A stretch of 64,000 nt of DNA from an uncultured Clostridia bacterium. GTDB lineage: Bacteria; Bacillota; Clostridia; Christensenellales; UBA1242. The position numbers and the translations under genes were made by a program. This document shows positions 7,773 to 48,246 of the stretch, in pieces (the stretch's first letter is position 1; every line of letters begins with the position of its first letter). The stretch covers positions 18,023-82,022 of the forward strand of contig CAKVGH010000001.1 in the NCBI GenBank assembly GCA_934747255.1. The letters run 5' to 3'. The notes beneath the pieces are model-generated. The model did no database searches, was not told the origin of the DNA, and saw only the letters and a list, made by a program, of their open reading frames with translations.

Positions 7773-9092
7773 ATGAAAAATACAGTTACTATTACCCCAG
7801 AAAAACAAAAAACATCGCCATTGCCAAGACTTTTAACATTGTTTACACTAATTGCGATAATAGTAGTTTTTATTACTGGTATTGGAATTTTAATAGGTAT
7901 CAATGCAAACAGGAATATAAATAATATCGAAAGTGTAGAAGTAAATGTTAAGTCGGTGTTAAGCCAAGAAGACAATAATCAAATTTCTATCATTACAACC
8001 GAAAATACGGAATACATAATTTTCTCCGTAATTGGCGAACACTTAAACTTTTATGAAGTAAAGGTGCTAGAAAACAATTCCGTAAAACTATTTGTTCTAA
8101 AAAACAGCAATAATGTTTTTGGTGTTGAAAGTTCCGTTTATAATCTTGACACTCAAACTGCGTTAAAAATTGCAAGCGACGACATCAAAATAGGTATTGG
8201 TTTTCTAAGTGGCTTTGCTGTTTTGTTTATTCTTTTATTAGTATTACATATACTTAAAATCAAAAAAGTGCGTAAAACAACCGAAATTGATGTTTTGGAA
8301 AAATGTTTTAACATTCCATTTAACTCACCCGCCCGAAACAAATTTGTATTATTTGGAATGTTTCCACTACTTGCCGTGCTTGTTGGATTTATAATTGCAG
8401 TTTTAATCGAAGGCTCAAAAGATGATACAACGACAAAATTTAATATTTTGATTTGGACAACACTTGCGATATTTGTAGTATTTGCTGTATTCTGCATTGT
8501 TGGAACTATTCTTATTCAAAAAAAGACCCGAAAATTCTTTGATAAAATTTATTCTTTTAATCTCTACGAATACGAAGATGAAGTTGAAAATTCTTTTCTT
8601 GACTTACAAAATGACATTTTATTCAAGTTTGACGAAAACGGCTTTATTACCGACCACGAAAAAATGCGTGAAATTGAAAGTCAAATGTTCGAAGATATGG
8701 CACAAGAAGAAGCTGTGCAAAATCACGAAGTCGATAAAGAGATTTTCAAAAAAGCCCTTGCAAATCAGTTTGATGAAAGTATTTTGAAAGACCAAAATTT
8801 GCCCGACTTTATTCCGTACGCAGACCTAAAATTATACTTGCGAGTAGTATTTAGACCTGACGGAACGATTATGGCATACATCTTCTCCAATCTGCCACAA
8901 GAAAACCAATTTAACCTTAAAAAAGACATTATGATTGAACTATCGCCTGACTCCTATTACTATATCAAAAAATATCATATCAAGGTTGATGGACTAATAA
9001 AATTTATGAATAATCGCCCAAAGCTAATGAAAAAATATTGCAAAGGCAAACCAAATATTCAGGACTTAACTGACTCAAATGATAATTTATAA
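7773..9092 (+). CDS. hypothetical multi-pass membrane protein
   Basis: AGGAGAAATT-ATG RBS and several hydrophobic helices. No family recognised. Confidence 0.4.
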   Translation: MKNTVTITPEKQKTSPLPRLLTLFTLIAIIVVFITGIGILIGINANRNINNIESVEVNVKSVLSQEDNNQISIITTENTEYIIFSVIGEHLNFYEVKVLENNSVKLFVLKNSNNVFGVESSVYNLDTQTALKIASDDIKIGIGFLSGFAVLFILLLVLHILKIKKVRKTTEIDVLEKCFNIPFNSPARNKFVLFGMFPLLAVLVGFIIAVLIEGSKDDTTTKFNILIWTTLAIFVVFAVFCIVGTILIQKKTRKFFDKIYSFNLYEYEDEVENSFLDLQNDILFKFDENGFITDHEKMREIESQMFEDMAQEEAVQNHEVDKEIFKKALANQFDESILKDQNLPDFIPYADLKLYLRVVFRPDGTIMAYIFSNLPQENQFNLKKDIMIELSPDSYYYIKKYHIKVDGLIKFMNNRPKLMKKYCKGKPNIQDLTDSNDNL

Positions 9093-38935: not shown

Positions 38936-41638
38936 CTAATTTTTACCACAGCAGTTTTTGTATTTTTTACCGCTACCGCAAGGGCAAGGGTCATTTCTAC
39001 CAATTTGTTTTGTTGTTCTTCTAACGGTTTGAGAGCCTTTTTCAACAGGAGTTGCATTGGCTTTAATATTTTTCTTTTGTTCTTGCATTGGTCTTTGAAC
39101 AACCTTTTCGATATGAGCATTCAAAATCATTTTTGCTGTATTTGTACGAATATTTGAAATCATATTTTCAAACATATCGTAACCTTCTTGTTTGTAGGCT
39201 GAAACTGGGTCTGTACGAGTTAAAATTTCTCGTTTTAACATTGTCATTGTGTCGATATGTTCTACCCACGCATTGTCAACCTTGTTAAGAAGTACCCATC
39301 TTTCTAGACGCTTAAAGCCGTCATCAAGTTGCATAATTTCGTTTACTTCTTTTTCCTTGTCGTCAAGGCGTTTTAGAGTTGCTTCGTAAGTCATATCAAC
39401 AATATCACTTACTTCTTTTCCTTCGACATTTTGTTCATTGAATAGGTTAGTATCTTTTGGCAAAATGTATTCTTCTAGTCGCTTATTTAGGTTATCTAAA
39501 TCCCATTCATAGTAGCCTTTATCTTCACTAATATTTTCTCTAACCGTTGTTTCGATTAGTTCGTGAACCATATCCAAAATTTCATCGTGGAAATCATCGC
39601 CTTCAAGCAACTTATCTCTTTGACCATAGATAACATTTCTTTGTTCGCTCAATACATCATCAAATTGAAGCAATGACCTACGAACAGCAAAGTTATTACT
39701 TTCCACTCTCTTTTGAGCATTTTCGATTTGTCTAGAAATAAATTTCATTTGGAAAAGTGGTTCATCTTCACTCATCTTAAACATATCAGCAATTCGTTTT
39801 AGTCTGTCGCCACCAAAAATTCTTGCAATATCATCTTCAAGCGAAATAAAGAATATACTTTCGCCTGGGTCACCCTGACGACCACTTCTACCACGAAGCT
39901 GATTGTCGATACGCCTTGATTCGTGACGCTCTGTACCGATAATATAAAGTCCACCTAGGTTGATTACTTCTTCCTTTTCCTTGTCGGTTTCCTTTTTGAA
40001 TTCGTTATATAATTCATTGTATCTTGCCTTTGCTTCTAGTAGTTTTTCGTCAGTAGTTGGAGCAAATGAAGTACAATCAATAATGTATTGTTCTTCAAAA
40101 CCCTCTTGCTTCATTCGTTGTTTTGCCAAAAATTCAGCATTACCACCAAGCAAAATATCAGTTCCACGACCAGCCATATTGGTTGCAATAGTTACAGCAC
40201 CAACTTTACCTGCTTGGGCAACAATTTCACTTTCCTTTTCGTGATTTTTAGCATTCAATACATTATGCTTAACACCTGCTTTTTTGAGCGCTGATGAAAT
40301 TTCTTCACTCTTTTCAACCGTAACAGTACCAACTAGAATTGGTTGTCCTGTTTGATGACGAGATATGATTTCGTCAATAATAGCATTGAGTTTACCTTTT
40401 TTGGTAGAATAAACAATATCAATATCGTCTTTTCTTCTAATAGGCTTGTTTGTTGGAATTGTTACAACATCGAGTTTGTAAATCTTGTTAAATTCGGTTT
40501 CTTCGGTCTTTGCTGTACCTGTCATACCCGACAACTTTTTGTAAAGTCTAAAGTAGTTTTGGTAAGTGATAGTTGCAACTGTCAAGTTTTCGTCATTTAC
40601 CTTAACGCCTTCCTTGGCTTCGATTGCTTGATGTAAGCCATCACTAAATCTTCTACCCGGCATAACACGACCAGTAAATTCATCAACGATTAAAACTTCG
40701 CCTTTTTCGTTAACGATATAATCGCTGTCTAGGTGCATCATAAAGTTGGCTCTTAAAGCATTGTTGATGTAATGGTTGATTTCCATATTTTCAACATCAG
40801 AAAGGTTGTCGATACCATAAAATCTTTCTGCTTTTTCAACACCTTTTTCGGTTAACCTGATTTGCTTTCTTTCTTCGTCAATTTCAAAGTCTTCATCACG
40901 CTTTAACCCCCTAACAAATGCTTGGGCTTTGTCGTAATCTTCGCTACTTCTAAAACCTTTACCACCGCTGATAATAAGAGGCGTCCTTGCTTCATCAATT
41001 AAAACGCTATCAACTTCGTCCACAATAGCAAAGTTGTGTCCCCTTTGCACTTTTTGTTCCAATCTAACGCACATATTGTCACGAAGATAGTCAAAACCAA
41101 ACTCACTATTTGTTCCGTAAGTAATATCTTTTTTGTAGGCTTCACGCTTTTTGTTGTCGTCCATTCCAGAAAGTGTAATACCAACACTTAATCCCTGAAA
41201 TTCAAAAACTTTGCCCATCCATTCGCTATCACGCTTTGCCAAGTATTCGTTTACTGTAACGATATGCACGCCCTTGCCAGATAGAGCATTCAAAAAGGCT
41301 GGTAATGTTTCGGTAAGTGTTTTACCTTCACCAGTTCTCATTTCGGCAATACGACCTTGATGAAGGGCAATTCCGCCCAAAATTTGAACATAATAGTGTT
41401 TTTGTTTTAATACTCTGTAACTTGCTTCTCTGTTGCAAGCATAAGCATCTGGCAAAATGTCATTTAGAGTTTCGCCATTCGCCAATCTATCTTTCAAAAC
41501 TTGTGTTTGTGCTTTTAATTCATCATCTGTCATAGAAGCATATTTTTCATCAAGAGCAACTACCTTGTCGGCAATAACTTTTAACTTTTTAATGTTTCTT
41601 GAATTATCAGATGCAAATAAATATGAAAATAATCCCAT
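38936..41638 (-). CDS. secA: preprotein translocase ATPase SecA
   Basis: MRTGEGKT Walker A, DEVDSVLIDEARTPLIIS, C-terminal zinc motif CPCGSGKKYKNCCG. Confidence 0.95.
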   Translation of the reverse strand: MGLFSYLFASDNSRNIKKLKVIADKVVALDEKYASMTDDELKAQTQVLKDRLANGETLNDILPDAYACNREASYRVLKQKHYYVQILGGIALHQGRIAEMRTGEGKTLTETLPAFLNALSGKGVHIVTVNEYLAKRDSEWMGKVFEFQGLSVGITLSGMDDNKKREAYKKDITYGTNSEFGFDYLRDNMCVRLEQKVQRGHNFAIVDEVDSVLIDEARTPLIISGGKGFRSSEDYDKAQAFVRGLKRDEDFEIDEERKQIRLTEKGVEKAERFYGIDNLSDVENMEINHYINNALRANFMMHLDSDYIVNEKGEVLIVDEFTGRVMPGRRFSDGLHQAIEAKEGVKVNDENLTVATITYQNYFRLYKKLSGMTGTAKTEETEFNKIYKLDVVTIPTNKPIRRKDDIDIVYSTKKGKLNAIIDEIISRHQTGQPILVGTVTVEKSEEISSALKKAGVKHNVLNAKNHEKESEIVAQAGKVGAVTIATNMAGRGTDILLGGNAEFLAKQRMKQEGFEEQYIIDCTSFAPTTDEKLLEAKARYNELYNEFKKETDKEKEEVINLGGLYIIGTERHESRRIDNQLRGRSGRQGDPGESIFFISLEDDIARIFGGDRLKRIADMFKMSEDEPLFQMKFISRQIENAQKRVESNNFAVRRSLLQFDDVLSEQRNVIYGQRDKLLEGDDFHDEILDMVHELIETTVRENISEDKGYYEWDLDNLNKRLEEYILPKDTNLFNEQNVEGKEVSDIVDMTYEATLKRLDDKEKEVNEIMQLDDGFKRLERWVLLNKVDNAWVEHIDTMTMLKREILTRTDPVSAYKQEGYDMFENMISNIRTNTAKMILNAHIEKVVQRPMQEQKKNIKANATPVEKGSQTVRRTTKQIGRNDPCPCGSGKKYKNCCGKN

Positions 41639-42037
41639 TAAAAATCTCCTAACTATCGCATATTAGTCAATAATATAATACAACATTTACCTTTTTTTGC
41701 AAACAAAATCAAATAAATTAAATCATATATTTATAATAAATTTGTAATATTTACTATTATGTTGAAGCAAAATAAGTAGACACTTTTTTAATCTTTTCAA
41801 CTAAAAGTACACCCCAAAATTTAACTGCAGTAAAATAAATAGAATAATACATACTTAACGGCTTTACAATAAAAAATGTCCTAGAAAACAAAAAAATATT
41901 TTTTCAAACTTAATACCAAACATTTTCATTCAAACAATCAGCAAATATTTCCTGTCAAAGTTCTTGATAATTTTCCTTTATTCTCTTTGATATTACATCT
42001 CATATTAACCCCAAAATGATTTTTTTACAAAATACAC

Positions 42038-42066
42038 TTGACAACTACTCAAAAATAGTATAAACT
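42038..42066 (+). promoter_or_regulatory. sigma-A-type promoter for tRNA-fMet
   Basis: TTGACA, 17 nt, TAAACT, ending 18 nt before the tRNA. Confidence 0.5.
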
Positions 42067-42084
42067 TAATGAGTCAATAAATAT

Positions 42085-42160
42085 CGCGGGGTGGAGCAGC
42101 TGGCAGCTCGTCGGGCTCATAACCCGAAGGTCGATAGTTCGAGTCTATCCCCCGCAACCA
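42085..42160 (+). tRNA. initiator tRNA-fMet(CAU), CCA encoded
   Basis: C1-A72 mismatch, three consecutive G-C pairs closing the anticodon stem (GGG/CCC), anticodon CAT. Confidence 0.85.
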
Positions 42161-42162
42161 GT

Positions 42163-42194
42163 AAAAAGAAGCACGGCTTGGTGCTTCTTTTTTT
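42163..42194 (+). terminator. terminator after tRNA-fMet
   Basis: AGAAGCAC-ggcttg-GTGCTTCT hairpin followed by a T-run. Confidence 0.75.
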
Positions 42195-42372
42195 ATTTTC
42201 TTCGGGCTATATGCTATGCTGGCAAATAACAGAAGTGAAGTATCAATTGAAGGATGTTTTTGTTTTCTTACTAAGAGTTATATTATTTTCAATTTCATTA
42301 AAAACACTAATTATAGATTTACAAATTAAATAAAAAAATGTATTATTAAATTATGAAAAAAAGTTAAATCGA

Positions 42373-44508
42373 TTGTTCGATAGTGAATTGTACGAATGGG
42401 AATGTTCTGATATTATTATGTTTTGTGATTATCTTACTTCTTTTGAAAGTTTAAAAATCGATGATTTCATAAATCAATTCGAATACATCAATCAAATAGC
42501 ATTTAATTGGAGCAATTTTGAAAGAAAAAGTTTTTACAGGGCTTTTTTTGAACAAATATATCACATCAATTGTGATAGCATACTTTCTTTTATTAATGGG
42601 CTAAATGATTTTTCTCTCAAAAATAAATTTAATATCTTGGCAAACGAAAATTTTTCAAAGAACAATTTTTCAGCTATTATAGAAATAATATCTTATCTAT
42701 TTTGTGACTTACCATACTTCCTACTCTCCTATTCGGACGATATTTTAGATTTTATTTATATCTCATTAAAACAAAGTTCAGCTTATACAAAGTTTTCTAA
42801 AAACAAAGTTTCAATAAATGAATATGAACCAATTATGCTTTTTTTAGAAAAGTTTTTATTAAAAAATCTTAATGATTTTAATTTTTGTTTTAATAATCAA
42901 ATGAATCAATCAGAAATTAATAGTTTTTCTTGGAACTCAATTTCCAAAGGACTCTCTTGTTTGTATTATTATAAAAACACACTTGGTAATGAAAATGAAT
43001 GCTTTTCTTTATCAAATGTAAAAAATATCATTGCATGTAAACAAAATCTTGGAGACTTATCACTGGACGAATTTTTATACAATTTAATATTAAATGGAAG
43101 AAAAGATATTTTTGAAGAATTATTAAATATTATTATTTTTAATCCTAAAGAGTTTTTAGAATGTTTTACGCATTGTTATAAATTATATGAAATAACCTGC
43201 ATTCCCGACAAAACACTTGCTTTGTTTATAAAAAATAAAACACTATTTACTGTAAATTATAAATTAAAGTGTGAATTCTTTTTGGATAGAGTTAAATCTT
43301 TAGCCTTCGATATTCAAAAAATAAATAAAAATCTTATTAATAAAATTGTTACAAATAGCTTATGGTTGATTGAATTAATTAAAAAATGTATTGATATATA
43401 TAATATCGAAAAAACAAATAAATGCATAAAATTTATCACTTACTTCGAAAGACGCTATACTGAAAATTCATTAGTAAAAGATAATAATAAAAAATACACA
43501 CTAGATATTGATAGTTTATACAACAAAGAAGAAATACATTCGTTTACTGAATCCTTAACAACTGATAGAATGGAAAAAGAAATATTTAATAAATTATTAA
43601 CTCTTAACAATTTTCCTATTAATACTGGATTTAATTACTCATTCAACTACATACTTTACCCTTTTAATAAATGTAGTTTTGAAATAAATGATGAAGATGG
43701 TACAAGTACAGACGAAATTGAGTTGAAAGACTATTTACTTAAACAAAATATTAATTTAACAAATTTAGACTATTCATATATAAGAACAATATGGAATGAG
43801 TATGATGATATTTTTAACTTACAGAATAATAGTGATTTCAGAAAAATTTTTAACAACACAATACATCTGGATTTAACGGAATTATGTACAAATATTATAT
43901 CATTAAATGATTATTCAGAAAAAATAGAAATAGAAAATAAAAATCGTGCTTTTCAAAAGATTTTGCCATATTTATATAACGATATATTAAAAAATAATTC
44001 TAACCTATTTAGATTAATTGATAAAAATCAAATTATAATAAATATGTTTGCCACTAGTGAATTTTTATTAAAATCCCAACAAAATCCAAATAAGATTATT
44101 GAAAGCGATTTAACATTTATAGCAGTAAATTCGATAAAAGCAACAGAACTATTTTTTGAAAGTACAATAAATTTTATTGTAAATAATAATTCTAAACACA
44201 TAAAAAATCTGTATATTAAAAATATAAAAGGAGATTTTGTTAACATTAAAAATAGTTCTTGGAGTGAGAAGTGTACAATTGGAAATATGCATATTTATCT
44301 TTCTAAAAATATTTTTGAAGGCAATATTAAAAAACAAGATTTAGATGAATTTAATAAGTTAACTCAAAATTGGATTAACACAATTAGAAATGATTATCTA
44401 CATAAAAAACGAATCAATAACATTACAATCACAAATGACTGTATAAACACATCTATGGAAGTAATTAATAAAGTTTTAATGTTAGTGAAAAAATTAATTA
44501 AAAGTTAA
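42373..44508 (+). CDS. large, very AT-rich hypothetical protein with a C-terminal HEPN-like Rx4H motif (start uncertain)
   Basis: 711 aa, rich in N/I/K/F. WINTIRNDYLHKKR lies 34 aa from the C-terminus (R-N-x-x-x-H, as in many HEPN RNase families). No RBS at the TTG track start. Confidence 0.4.
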   Translation: MFDSELYEWECSDIIMFCDYLTSFESLKIDDFINQFEYINQIAFNWSNFERKSFYRAFFEQIYHINCDSILSFINGLNDFSLKNKFNILANENFSKNNFSAIIEIISYLFCDLPYFLLSYSDDILDFIYISLKQSSAYTKFSKNKVSINEYEPIMLFLEKFLLKNLNDFNFCFNNQMNQSEINSFSWNSISKGLSCLYYYKNTLGNENECFSLSNVKNIIACKQNLGDLSLDEFLYNLILNGRKDIFEELLNIIIFNPKEFLECFTHCYKLYEITCIPDKTLALFIKNKTLFTVNYKLKCEFFLDRVKSLAFDIQKINKNLINKIVTNSLWLIELIKKCIDIYNIEKTNKCIKFITYFERRYTENSLVKDNNKKYTLDIDSLYNKEEIHSFTESLTTDRMEKEIFNKLLTLNNFPINTGFNYSFNYILYPFNKCSFEINDEDGTSTDEIELKDYLLKQNINLTNLDYSYIRTIWNEYDDIFNLQNNSDFRKIFNNTIHLDLTELCTNIISLNDYSEKIEIENKNRAFQKILPYLYNDILKNNSNLFRLIDKNQIIINMFATSEFLLKSQQNPNKIIESDLTFIAVNSIKATELFFESTINFIVNNNSKHIKNLYIKNIKGDFVNIKNSSWSEKCTIGNMHIYLSKNIFEGNIKKQDLDEFNKLTQNWINTIRNDYLHKKRINNITITNDCINTSMEVINKVLMLVKKLIKS

Positions 44509-44532
44509 ATTGAAGATATAAAAGGACAAAGT

Positions 44533-44937
44533 ATGGAACAAAAGAGAATTATTGCGGTGGCTGGAATTATTGAAGGTGCTGACGGAAAAATTTTATGCAC
44601 ACAAAGAGATAAAAGCAAAAATGATGAAGTATCATTTAAGTGGGAGTTTCCCGGTGGAAAAATGGAATATGGCGAAACAGCCAAGCAAACAATCGCCCGA
44701 GAATTAAAAGAAGAATTGGACATTGATGTGATAGTTGAAAACCTATATTACACTGTCGAATTTGACTACCCTAATTTTCATTTATCAATGCCTGTTTACA
44801 AATGCAAAATGTTGAGCAAAAACTACAAGCTTAATGTACACAAAAGTGCAATGTGGTTAGAAAAATCCAAGATTTTAAGTCTAGACTGGGCACCAGCAGA
44901 TTTATTGATAGCAAAGCAGATACTAAAACAAGGCTAG
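44533..44937 (+). CDS. Nudix hydrolase (MutT/CTP-pyrophosphohydrolase-like)
   Basis: Canonical Nudix box GKMEYGETAKQTIARELKEELDI. AAGGA RBS. Confidence 0.8.
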   Translation: MEQKRIIAVAGIIEGADGKILCTQRDKSKNDEVSFKWEFPGGKMEYGETAKQTIARELKEELDIDVIVENLYYTVEFDYPNFHLSMPVYKCKMLSKNYKLNVHKSAMWLEKSKILSLDWAPADLLIAKQILKQG

Positions 44938-45252
44938 ATTTTTGGTGCTATGGAGTGGAACTTTTGAATGACCATTAGGCAAATATATTGGATATAAACT
45001 ATTTTATCTAGTGCAATTACACCTGATCATATAAAATTTTATACTATACTTTTTAGATTTTATAGTAATACAACTAGAATTTTGAAAAATCGTTATTTTA
45101 TTTAAGAATATAATTTATGTAACAAAAACAAATATGCAAAATAAGTAATAAATACCAATTTTACTGACAAGTTTATTAAGTTAACAGACTATTTTTTATG
45201 AGTTCATTTAATAAATTTCTAAATATGCAATTACCATTTTTAATTACCGATT

Positions 45253-45284
45253 ACAACAAAAAACACTACTTTAAGAAAGTGTGT
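45253..45284 (-). terminator. terminator of the MoxR-vWA operon
   Basis: On the minus strand: CACAC(T)TTCTTAAAGTAGTG hairpin followed by TTTTTG. Confidence 0.5.
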
Positions 45285-45386
45285 CGAATAAATCATTTGG
45301 CAAACTTATAATAAGCAGTGTTTTTTATTTTATTTTTATTTTTTATATCTTTATAAAGTTATATGGTTTTATAGTTTTACACAGAC

Positions 45387-46634
45387 TTATTGCACAAGAG
45401 TTTCGCTATCATTGTTTGAGTCATCTTTATTACTTTCGTCTTTTGTATGTTTGTTGTTTTTCTTTTCCAATGCTTTTTTTATCAATTTATCTCTATATAT
45501 TTCAGCAGGTGACTTTCCATAATCTATTTCTTCTTGCGTCTTATATTGAAGAGATAATTCTTCTAGTTCTTGTGCTGTTTTAACAGTAAATGCCTCGGTT
45601 AAAAAATTATCTTCTTCAAAATCTACATTTAGTTTTGTTGGTTTAGTTTGCAAAGCAGTATTATTCAAGGTATCGGTTTTTATGTTTTGTCCATTAAGAT
45701 AACTTAAAATTAAGTTATTTTGCCAAAAATCATCGTTTGCGTTTTCAAGGTTAGTAACAAATGGAATACCAGAAATTAAGCCGTTTTTTGCTTGAACTTT
45801 TATCTTAAAATGACGCTTAAAATTTTTTTGAATTGCTATTTGAGTTTCATCAACATTCAAAACTTTCCATTTGATTGGCTCAACTTTTACCCATAAATAA
45901 TCGCCTTCTACATTATTTAACAAATTGCCGTCACACAAATTTCTGTCTATGTTATTCAACTCTTTATCTGTACGATTTATTCTTGTTCTAACATACAATT
46001 TTTTGTCATAAACAAATTCTTCGTTTTTAATAAATCTGGAAATTTTTTTATCAAAATAGCCTAGATATGTTTTGCCTGTTGCAACCAAAATGTTTGACTT
46101 GTAAAGTTGTTCCAATCTTTTATTAAAATTTTTACCAACATAGTTTGAAGGAAACTCTCCCACTTCAATATAATAGTAGTCTTTTCCCATTTCGTCAACG
46201 CCAGTTCTTAACTGCTTATCAAGTGGTCCGCCAAATTTTATTAAGCCTTCAATATCAAAACTAGCTCGCGGAACTATTGTGAGTGAGTTCCTATCTATTG
46301 AGTCCCAATTGATTAGTGAATGACCAAAGTTGTTTGTAGATTGAACTAATCTGCCAAACCCTTCGGTACATTTATACATAAAGAAACTTTGAATAGGATA
46401 AAAGCAAAATCTATTTTGATGATAAAATGGATTTTCTAATGCAAAAGCACCACAACATAAAGCATAATCGTTGGCTATAATTACTTTCATTTGAGGCTCT
46501 TTTTGAGAATCAATCTCTTTTAGAGTTGGTAAATGAAACAAATTTTCAGTTTTTATATGTCTTGTTTTGCCTTCGTTCAAAATACAAATTTCATTTTCAG
46601 TAACTTTTATTATCTCTCGTAAATCGACTGACAT
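45387..46634 (-). CDS. hypothetical 415-aa protein, last gene of the MoxR-vWA operon
   Basis: GGAGG RBS, 64 nt after the vWA gene stop. No recognisable catalytic motif. K/D/E/N-rich tail. Confidence 0.45.
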   Translation of the reverse strand: MSVDLREIIKVTENEICILNEGKTRHIKTENLFHLPTLKEIDSQKEPQMKVIIANDYALCCGAFALENPFYHQNRFCFYPIQSFFMYKCTEGFGRLVQSTNNFGHSLINWDSIDRNSLTIVPRASFDIEGLIKFGGPLDKQLRTGVDEMGKDYYYIEVGEFPSNYVGKNFNKRLEQLYKSNILVATGKTYLGYFDKKISRFIKNEEFVYDKKLYVRTRINRTDKELNNIDRNLCDGNLLNNVEGDYLWVKVEPIKWKVLNVDETQIAIQKNFKRHFKIKVQAKNGLISGIPFVTNLENANDDFWQNNLILSYLNGQNIKTDTLNNTALQTKPTKLNVDFEEDNFLTEAFTVKTAQELEELSLQYKTQEEIDYGKSPAEIYRDKLIKKALEKKNNKHTKDESNKDDSNNDSETLVQ

Positions 46635-46698
46635 TTCGCCTCCTGTTAATAATTATTGAAACATTTTATCATTAAAATTTTTTCTTACATAATATAAT

Positions 46699-48246
46699 TT
46701 ACATTGTAAGTTGTTCATCGTCTTCTAATTTGGTTTTTTTCTTAAAATCCATAATGTCTTGTGGGTCAACAAATATAACTTTTCCATTGTCTGGGTGAAA
46801 ATGTGGATTTTGAAAAGATACCCAAATTATATCTTTTCGTGGATTTACAATACCAGCATCGCCACCGTCTTGACCATCTGTAAAACATATTTTGTTAATA
46901 TTTTTATCTTTTGAAAATGACTTACTTGCAACATCAAAATTTGTTCCGCCATAAATACTTATTCTTAAATTATCAATATCTTTTTCGGTTTTGATTTCCT
47001 GAAAACCTGAAAAGTCATCAGCAAAGAATCCTACTTTGATTTTTGAATTTTTTAAGATAGTTTTTACTTGTCTTAAAAATGCTCGCAACAATTCTTCACT
47101 AACCGAACCACTGACATCAAGAATAATCTCGGTTTCTGCTTGCTCATCATATTCATAATCTTCAATTCGCATAGCATAGTTATTATCTTTTGATGAGAAC
47201 TTTCTGCCCCATCTTTCGTCTTCTATTTCCAACTCTTTTTTCAATCTTCTTTTCCAGTTATAAACTGCTTTTGATGCACTTCCAACTGGTCCTAATGCTT
47301 CATCTATGCCAGCATTACCGCCATCTCCATTGTTTCTAATGTTTTCTTGAAGTTGCTCTTTAATTCTCTTTGCCAAAGCCTTTCTTTCTTGACGGTTTTT
47401 ATCGAACTCTTTTTTCTCGTCAATATTTTCACTTTCGCCTTGTTTTTTATCTTTGCCGTCTTTTGCTTGTTGGTCTTGATTTGCTCCCGATGAAGATTGC
47501 TCTTTATTAGGTTGTTTTTTATCAGCATCATCTTTTTGTTTTGATGATTTATTATCTGCATTTGCAGATTTTTCGTTCTTCTCTTTTTCAGCTTGCTTTT
47601 CGGCTTCTTCTACTGCCTTTTTCCACATATCGTGAGAAGGATAATTTTTGTTTTTATTATCATCATTTTGATTTTGGTCAGCAGATTGATTACCACCATT
47701 TTGATTTTGTTGTTGATTATTATTTTGATTTTGTTGACTTCCACTTTGATTAGAGTTTGATTGTCCACCTTGCGATTGTTGTTGATTGTTTTGATTAGAG
47801 TCATTAGACTGGTTTATCTTTTGTTCTTCTTGCTTCTTTTTTTCTTCTTCTAAAAGTTTGTTATAATATTGTTCGGCATTATAATTTATCGCATCTTCAA
47901 AATCTACCCCGCCTTCTACAAATGGCAAATTGTCTTTTTTGAGTTGTTGATTTATAACAGCATCGGTTGCTATATTCCACAAATATCCGTCTCTGTCTTT
48001 ACTTCTTAAAATATGATTAAAAGCAATATGACACACTTCGTGAGCAAATATAAAAATTTGTTCATCATTAGTTAACGACTGCATAAATTGTTCATTAAAG
48101 TAGATAGTTTTTCCGTCTGTTCCAGCAGTAGGTACTGAATCATTTGCAACTTGATATTTAACCTTGTTTATTACCGAACCAAAATAAGGATACTTAATAA
48201 GTAACCTTTTTTTGATTGCGTCAATATCTAACTTTGGTGAGTCCAT
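46699..48246 (-). CDS. HExxH metallopeptidase-like domain + Q/N-rich linker + vWA domain protein (DUF2201-like architecture)
   Basis: N-terminal FAHEVCHIAFNH (HExxH), about 170 aa of low complexity, C-terminal MIDAS-like ILDVSGSVS...GGTNF. Confidence 0.6.
   Translation of the reverse strand: MDSPKLDIDAIKKRLLIKYPYFGSVINKVKYQVANDSVPTAGTDGKTIYFNEQFMQSLTNDEQIFIFAHEVCHIAFNHILRSKDRDGYLWNIATDAVINQQLKKDNLPFVEGGVDFEDAINYNAEQYYNKLLEEEKKKQEEQKINQSNDSNQNNQQQSQGGQSNSNQSGSQQNQNNNQQQNQNGGNQSADQNQNDDNKNKNYPSHDMWKKAVEEAEKQAEKEKNEKSANADNKSSKQKDDADKKQPNKEQSSSGANQDQQAKDGKDKKQGESENIDEKKEFDKNRQERKALAKRIKEQLQENIRNNGDGGNAGIDEALGPVGSASKAVYNWKRRLKKELEIEDERWGRKFSSKDNNYAMRIEDYEYDEQAETEIILDVSGSVSEELLRAFLRQVKTILKNSKIKVGFFADDFSGFQEIKTEKDIDNLRISIYGGTNFDVASKSFSKDKNINKICFTDGQDGGDAGIVNPRKDIIWVSFQNPHFHPDNGKVIFVDPQDIMDFKKKTKLEDDEQLTM

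Follow-up and report, generated by a model that had tools for sequence, protein, structure and literature searches.

The window analysed here is a stretch of 64,000 nucleotides from an uncultured Clostridia bacterium (contig CAKVGH010000001.1, positions 18,023 to 82,022 of the forward strand), and its subject is a single long open reading frame (ORF) that runs on the forward strand from a TTG at 42373 to 44508 and encodes a protein of 711 amino acids (aa). An initiator tRNA-fMet and, beyond it, secA lie on its 5' side, and a Nudix hydrolase gene follows it. The original prediction, made from the letters of the sequence, regarded this gene as a candidate for abortive infection whose product carries a HEPN-type ribonuclease (RNase) motif near its C-terminus. 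Because position 42161, where that prediction began, directly follows the last base of the tRNA, the span 42161-44508 takes in a leader of 212 nt in addition to the gene. Gene callers in public assemblies use an alternative start, the ATG at 42418 (forward strand, 696 aa), and no convincing ribosome-binding site is present at either the TTG or the ATG. The frame itself, which the prediction had given correctly, is upheld by stop statistics: with the base composition of the ORF (A 42%, T 36%) stops should fall about every 10 codons, the other five frames hold 30-117 of them, and a run of 711 open codons would arise with a probability of about 2e-32, so that the frame must be genuine and not random.

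The leader begins with a hairpin of 12 pairs followed by a run of T (42163-42192, forward strand), which is the sole terminator-like site between 41600 and 45400. This intrinsic-terminator-like element appears to end the transcript of the tRNA, and the ORF would therefore need its own promoter. A promoter-like site (TTTACA-17-TATTAT; 42318-42346, forward strand) stands 27 nt 5' of the TTG and agrees with the consensus at 10 of 12 positions; since promoter-like matches in the stretch number 30, against 31.6 expected in its shuffles, this site is to be read as a consensus match only. The product is cytoplasmic, with no predicted transmembrane segment and a maximum Kyte-Doolittle value of 1.59 over a window of 19 residues.

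A second feature to which attention had been drawn, the extreme richness in A and T, is borne out by a scan of the whole genome. The GC content of the ORF is 21.8% (25.7, 22.1 and 17.7% at the first, second and third codon positions), which is lower than in any other of the 459 ORFs that reach 250 aa or more in this 1.04-Mb genome (mean 33.3%, standard deviation 2.9) and falls under even that of the non-ORF DNA (24.8%). Very low GC contents are reportedly also a property of the lactococcal abi genes.

The protein had been described as an orphan; it proves instead to be one of 10 members of a rare and patchily distributed family that shares a C-terminal domain. Direct searches gave few leads: the ORF protein matched nothing in Pfam, PADLOC, NCBIfam or PHROGs, neither the protein nor its domain matched any of the 5027 models of PADLOC-DB 2.0, and when 5.8 billion proteins were searched by a word index, nothing but the ORF protein itself came back, three times. 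Scanning viral contigs, JGI metagenomes and also GTDB genomes for patterns yielded nothing. When 1.84 billion representatives were searched exhaustively with HMMER, a single further sequence came up, P0003 (155 aa), with 36% identity to residues 558-705. It forms the last part of a longer frame, split by a 10-N scaffold gap (L025 467-476), on a metagenome contig of 1,258 bp whose homologue has a GC content of 19%; this frame adjoins rplA, recognised by its C-terminal sequence, and a weak collinear match continues upstream. Eight more members were gained by iterated whole-genome profile searches with the C-terminal alignment across about 1,600 genomes of Clostridia and other Firmicutes. Named by the genomes that carry them, they are G541 (707 aa) and G545 (744 aa) from the same bacterial family, G908 (422 aa) from the same order, G1137 (785 aa), G062 (838 aa), G146 (564 aa) and G928 (698 aa) from the same class, and G1549 (540 aa) from the same phylum. 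In none of the eight did hmmscan find a Pfam match at E<=10, and the seven other members compared with PADLOC had matches at chance level only (E 0.01 and 0.27). The family is best described as new, without an existing Pfam, PADLOC or NCBIfam model.

Its prevalence is about 1% (found in 3/401 genomes from the same bacterial family, 2/401 from the order, 5/399 from the class and 2/401 from the phylum). The ORF is an accessory gene: no homologue occurs in the 40 closest genomes, three of which belong to the same genus. Within the species there is no presence/absence polymorphism, in that nine public metagenome contigs carry the ORF in the same context (9/9 of those bearing the Nudix gene have it upstream). 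Members of the family are solitary, and their neighbours are unrelated to one another, including hrcA-dnaK, uvrC, rplA, glycerate kinase, a PHP protein and a leucine-rich repeat protein.

Only the last 150 or so residues are conserved across the family. When the ORF protein was compared by BLASTP with the G541 member, for example, the match was limited to residues 550-704, and the N-terminal regions, which range from about 250 to 650 aa, have no detected similarity to one another. Because conservation is confined to the C-terminus and the N-termini are unlike, we view the former as a modular, effector-like domain that has been joined to varied partners. In the ORF protein this domain comprises residues 558-711 (44044-44505, forward strand). 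The preceding 557 or so residues (42373-44043, forward strand), for which we propose a sensor or regulatory role, have no match in Pfam, PADLOC, NCBIfam or PHROGs, and the full-length single-sequence AlphaFold model was unusable, with a predicted local distance difference test (pLDDT) score of 36.

Conservation within the domain, counted from alignments A7 and A8 (the latter holding the 10 members), centres on a few polar residues. A glutamate in predicted helix 1, E563 (44059-44061, forward strand), lies in the motif [AST][ST]xE[WFY]L and occurs in all 10 members, as do both the lysine and the glutamate of the K[AS][VIT]E motif in predicted helix 2, which here reads K589-A-T-E592 (44137-44148, forward strand). 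Further along, C634-T-I-G-N-M639 (44272-44289, forward strand) represents a TxGxL/M block, situated in the insert between predicted helices 2 and 3, whose T635 is present in 9/10 members. The putative catalytic Rx4H motif, R672-N673-D-Y-L-H677-K678 (44386-44406, forward strand), has R672, N673, H677 and K678 kept in 9/10 members, with the family consensus W..xIRNGYFHKD. The RNDYLH hexamer at 44386-44403 is the sole Rx4-6H in the ORF protein and stands exactly where the original prediction had put it. Because a shuffled protein contains R[NDHQ]x3-5H somewhere in 8% of cases, and within the last 150 residues in 1.6%, the motif by itself would be only suggestive, and it is the conservation of RNxxxH in the relatives that gives it meaning.

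Some members show features of their own. In the G928 member (L078 7293-9386), VDAKFD replaces RNxxxH and the TxG block is lost, with E563, K589 and E592 all kept; this protein is probably catalytically dead. The G1549 member (L081 112-1731) is rich in Ala, Arg and Gly and evidently of high GC content, and the usual N-terminus is replaced by a predicted transmembrane helix and a long coiled-coil-like region. The domain of the G146 member (L077 2688-4379) is internal, with about 140 residues beyond it, and a gene for an uncharacterised 342-aa protein ends 14 nt upstream, so that the two may form an operon.

HEPN domains have been characterised (PMC3710099) as up-down bundles of four helices and 100-120 residues, in which inserts are frequent between helices 2 and 3, the motif lies where helix 3 ends, with a polar residue after its R, and helix 2 has a conserved acid. 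We obtained an AlphaFold2 model of the C-terminal domain from a two-sequence alignment (A1), with a pLDDT of 68 and a predicted template modelling score (pTM) of 0.70. Helices are predicted at residues 554-568, 577-604, 654-676 and 684-710. Between the second and third is an insert (605-653), the length of which varies among members and which is modelled in part at low confidence, with a short helix at 636-647. R672-L676 close predicted helix 3, H677 opens the loop that follows, and E592, a candidate for the conserved acidic residue of HEPN, lies within helix 2. Because the motif ends helix 3 and an insert separates the second helix from the third, the shallow model has the topology given for a HEPN domain. 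The motif itself has the form Rx4-6H with a polar residue after R (R672-N673-x3-H677), a combination shared by 9/10 members. When the model was compared with the PDB by Foldseek, seven of the top 11 matches, at values short of significance, were HepT/HEPN toxins (among them 8yuf, 8xeh, 7ae2, 7ae9, 8xdj and 6m6w).

A further comparison was made with 13 Abi_2 (PF07751) domains taken from Clostridia genomes, using hhalign to align the two profiles. As the query alignment grew from 2 to 4, 9 and 10 members, the P value fell from 0.16 to 0.0097, 0.0064 and 0.0025 (the last with a probability of 12%), and the alignment was constant in all rounds, pairing TxGxL with SFGxL, W with W, and RNxxxH with RNxxAH. 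Shuffling the columns of the query equalled the real score in 1/300 cases. Because Abi_2 had been chosen for the shared motif, the motif and all that is downstream of it were removed from both alignments; the score of the remainder was 22.0 (P 0.009), a value reached by 0/200 shuffles, of which the highest scored 16.9. These comparisons point to a weak signal, reproducible and sub-threshold, of distant relatedness to the Abi2/AbiD-AbiF branch. The protein does not count as a member of PF07751 itself, as that family's hidden Markov model (HMM) matched neither the ORF protein nor the domain at E<=10, and there is no PF07751 match in the bacterium's own genome.

The Abi_2 proteins (AbiD-AbiD1-AbiF) are single-gene lactococcal abortive-infection proteins that have been classed as HEPN (Anantharaman et al. 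2013, PMC3710099; the same paper cites Chopin et al. 2005 as a reference on lactococcal Abi systems). Like them, the ORF is a single, solitary gene of very low GC content whose product has RNxxxH, preceded by a hydrophobic residue, where a helix ends, a W upstream, and a [ST]xGx[LM] block, aligned with the SFGxL of Abi_2, about 40 residues before the R. Several features differ, however. The HEPN-like domain is C-terminal, behind some 250-650 unrelated residues, whereas the Abi_2 proteins in the sampled loci have open frames of about 240-360 aa and a matched domain of about 180; a K follows the H in this family ([HK][KD]) and the A before the H is absent; and the first half of the domain (E563, K589..E592) is not aligned to Abi_2. 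The best-ranking, non-significant structural neighbours are the HepT/HEPN toxins of HEPN-MNT systems (DUF86; 8yuf, 8xeh, 7ae2, 8xdj, 6m6w), which are of similar size and also have Rx4H about 35 residues from the C-terminus. Unlike in those systems, no MNT antitoxin gene was found nearby, and the tyrosine of Rx4HxY is absent, the ORF having HKK. In overall architecture, there is a parallel with AbiJ, AbiA-CTD and other Abi proteins (PMC3710099, Table 1), which likewise combine a variable N-terminal region with a C-terminal HEPN and are patchy and solitary; unlike these, the present family has no Pfam or PADLOC match, and its N-termini match none of the N-terminal domains described there and no reverse transcriptase.

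The idea of a C-terminal HEPN domain thus survives in part. Conservation of the motif, its position where helix 3 ends and the weak similarity to Abi_2 speak for it, and the predicted four helices place the motif as in HEPN, but no HEPN model matches and the resemblance to solved HEPN toxins falls short of significance. On balance, we consider a HEPN-like RNase moderately supported, and the tail of the protein looks like a previously unmodelled family of the HEPN type.

The reading that we favour, with a probability of about 50%, is that the ORF encodes a gated, HEPN-like, single-gene effector of a rare accessory family that acts in anti-phage abortive infection. The protein would be a cytoplasmic, single-chain effector belonging to a family scattered through Clostridia and other Firmicutes, whose C-terminal 150 or so residues would fold into a HEPN-like domain of four helices, with the Abi2/AbiD-AbiF branch as its nearest kin. 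The variable N-terminal part would keep the predicted RNase silent until it is set free by a trigger, for which a phage component is the most plausible candidate, and the ensuing cleavage of RNA would arrest the infected cell, as in abortive infection. RNase activity, gating by the N-terminus and a role against phages are each what we infer at this point, the last of these from the architecture of the proteins, their rarity and their genomic context. In general terms, a single-gene phage-defence or toxin effector is the most likely identity of the gene.

A number of results weigh against this reading, some of which concern the domain and others the role in defence. The model is built on a shallow alignment of two sequences, and the remaining four AlphaFold models scored poorly (pLDDT 42-53). 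Matches to the PDB by Foldseek were not significant (E 0.35-0.7, probability 0.5-0.77, template modelling score 0.35-0.52), the list also contains FAT domains and designed helical bundles, generic helical bundles obtain similar scores, and a comparison with viral structures (BFVD) returned nothing significant. Sequence and profile searches of the PDB gave chance matches only, and no HEPN, Abi or defence HMM from Pfam, PADLOC or NCBIfam matched the members tested. The Ex3[KR] spacing that is usual in helix 2 of HEPN is not kept, E563-x3-K567 being found only in the ORF protein. The probability assigned by hhalign to the match with Abi_2 is just 12%, and that signal is partly circular because Abi_2 was picked for sharing the motif. 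With regard to defence, the hallmarks of defence islands are missing around most members, and no sequence variation was seen within the species among the contigs compared, which are identical in DNA or protein.

If the domain were a helical bundle unrelated to HEPN, its conserved E...K..E...RNxxxHK residues might serve to bind a ligand, nucleotide or protein, or to catalyse some other reaction, and the Rx4H would be convergent. The low hhalign probability and the want of a significant match to any HEPN model or structure are what such a domain would lead one to expect, and helical bundles yield many unspecific fold matches, to which is added the moderate confidence of the model. We regard this explanation as unlikely, though with a real chance of being right. 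Against it stands the joint fit to HEPN of four features, namely the polar N after R, a motif placed where helix 3 ends, an insert that separates helix 2 from helix 3 and an invariant acid in helix 2; moreover, the similarity to Abi_2 persists without the motif, and HEPN toxins top the Foldseek list.

Less probable again is that the protein is indeed a HEPN-type RNase with a function other than defence, either as a self-contained toxin or addiction module or as a nuclease of stress or RNA turnover, with the N-terminus as an internal inhibitor or substrate adaptor. This rests on the same domain evidence as the abortive-infection reading, and the surroundings of several members lend it some weight: they stand beside housekeeping or stress genes (hrcA-grpE-dnaK-dnaJ in G541, uvrC in G928 and rplA in L025) and not in recognisable defence islands, and the G1549 member is followed by a PIN-like (VapC-like) gene (L081 2183-2674), a call that was made by sequence alone. 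A general cellular role is, however, disfavoured by a prevalence of about 1% and by absence from the congeners. Next to the members, no small antitoxin-like gene is conserved; the extreme composition and the non-homologous N-termini are also more typical of conflict genes.

It is quite improbable that the ORF is a gene peculiar to its lineage, either evolving fast or in decay, that serves no function at present, its AT-richness reflecting drift toward the mutational bias of the genome and not a foreign origin. In favour of this, the GC deficit resides mostly in codon positions 1 and 2 (a composition rich in N, I, K and F), GC3 (17.7%) is only slightly lower than in native neighbours (21-34%), nothing matches the 557 N-terminal residues, and one family member has lost the motif. 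Against it, 711 codons cannot remain open by chance at 21.8% GC (2e-32), the GC content lies under even that of non-coding DNA, the domain and its polar residues are conserved across genomes that reach from 19% GC to an evidently much higher value, and 9/9 sampled contigs carry the ORF intact in the same context.

Returning to the abortive-infection reading, a more specific version can be offered tentatively: these proteins may be undescribed single-protein abortive-infection effectors of gut Clostridia, of which the ORF protein would be the first to be noticed; they would form a new HEPN branch (IRNGYFHKD) with N-terminal sensors whose replacement is so frequent that even members from a single bacterial family no longer show a recognisable likeness there, and this bacterium would have kept one in a reduced genome of 1 Mb beside two other candidates for conflict functions (a Nudix gene resembling PDC-S07 and a MoxR-vWA cassette). 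If so, there would be a new branch of HEPN RNases that the current Pfam, PADLOC and NCBIfam models overlook, and a single-gene immunity or toxin module in uncultured gut Clostridia with small genomes, whose defence repertoire is poorly known. The domain makes a compact test case, with about 150 residues and three or four candidate catalytic residues, and the occurrence of one effector domain on unrelated N-termini constitutes a natural series that could reveal how HEPN effectors are gated. Even if the reading is wrong, what we have found is a conserved domain of unknown function that deserves a model in the family databases.

The position of the ORF after a tRNA gene bears on how it may have been acquired. 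The tRNA (42085-42160, forward strand; anticodon CAT) was detected by ARAGORN and by the Rfam tRNA model (60.8 bits), and the marks of an initiator can be read from its sequence: the mismatch C1xA72, A11:U24, and an anticodon stem with three G:C pairs. Upstream of it is secA (38936-41638, reverse strand). The pair formed by secA and the tRNA-Met gene is common to all three congeners (G001, G002 and G003), and the genes past the tRNA differ in each. In G001 these are an AT-rich gene for a 250-aa membrane protein, followed by cysS and tyrS; in G003, maf and a gene for a Big_3 protein; and in G002, genes without a Pfam match (3/4 of those tested). The G001 membrane protein, itself an orphan (L020 3336-4088; about 21-24% GC), has an N-terminus resembling an XRE helix-turn-helix, then several hydrophobic helices, and no Pfam match. 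Because the genes after the tRNA differ in each congener, we consider this site a breakpoint with lineage-specific cargo; it is a point of rearrangement in the genus, and it appears to gather lineage-specific AT-rich genes.

That the ORF adjoins the tRNA, as originally stated, is correct; that it was inserted there is plausible and unproven, because there is no integrase among its neighbours, no direct repeat of the 3' end of the tRNA in 41600-46800, and no empty site among the three congeners, each of which carries different genes past the same tRNA. A tRNA-targeted integrated island, as would be recognised by an integrase together with a direct repeat of the tRNA end, is not supported at this locus. 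Nor was a tandem or RNA antitoxin-like element found.

On the 3' side, the Nudix hydrolase gene (44533-44937, forward strand; Pfam NUDIX, 134 aa) starts 24 nt past the ORF with its own AAAAGGA ribosome-binding site and no terminator between the two, and may be co-transcribed with the ORF. Its product matches PDC-S07, which is listed by PADLOC as a candidate model for phage defence, over the full length with an E value of 3e-42. Because homologues with 44-57% identity sit elsewhere in related genomes, it may simply be a MutT-like housekeeping gene. We rejected a conserved two-gene system of Nudix and ORF, since other members of the family lack a Nudix neighbour and the Nudix homologues of the relatives are located elsewhere. 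Beyond the Nudix gene is a MoxR-vWA cassette, identified by Pfam matches, and together these PDC-S07-like and MoxR-vWA neighbours give this locus the flavour of a defence island. Finally, one of the congeners, G001, has a second, divergent secA-like gene (contig C17, 3627-6074; 42-55% identity), with a weak Nudix-like match (8528-8698) about 2.5 kb downstream of it. This gene could represent a SecA2 paralogue or contamination, the G001 assembly being 91% complete with 3% contamination.

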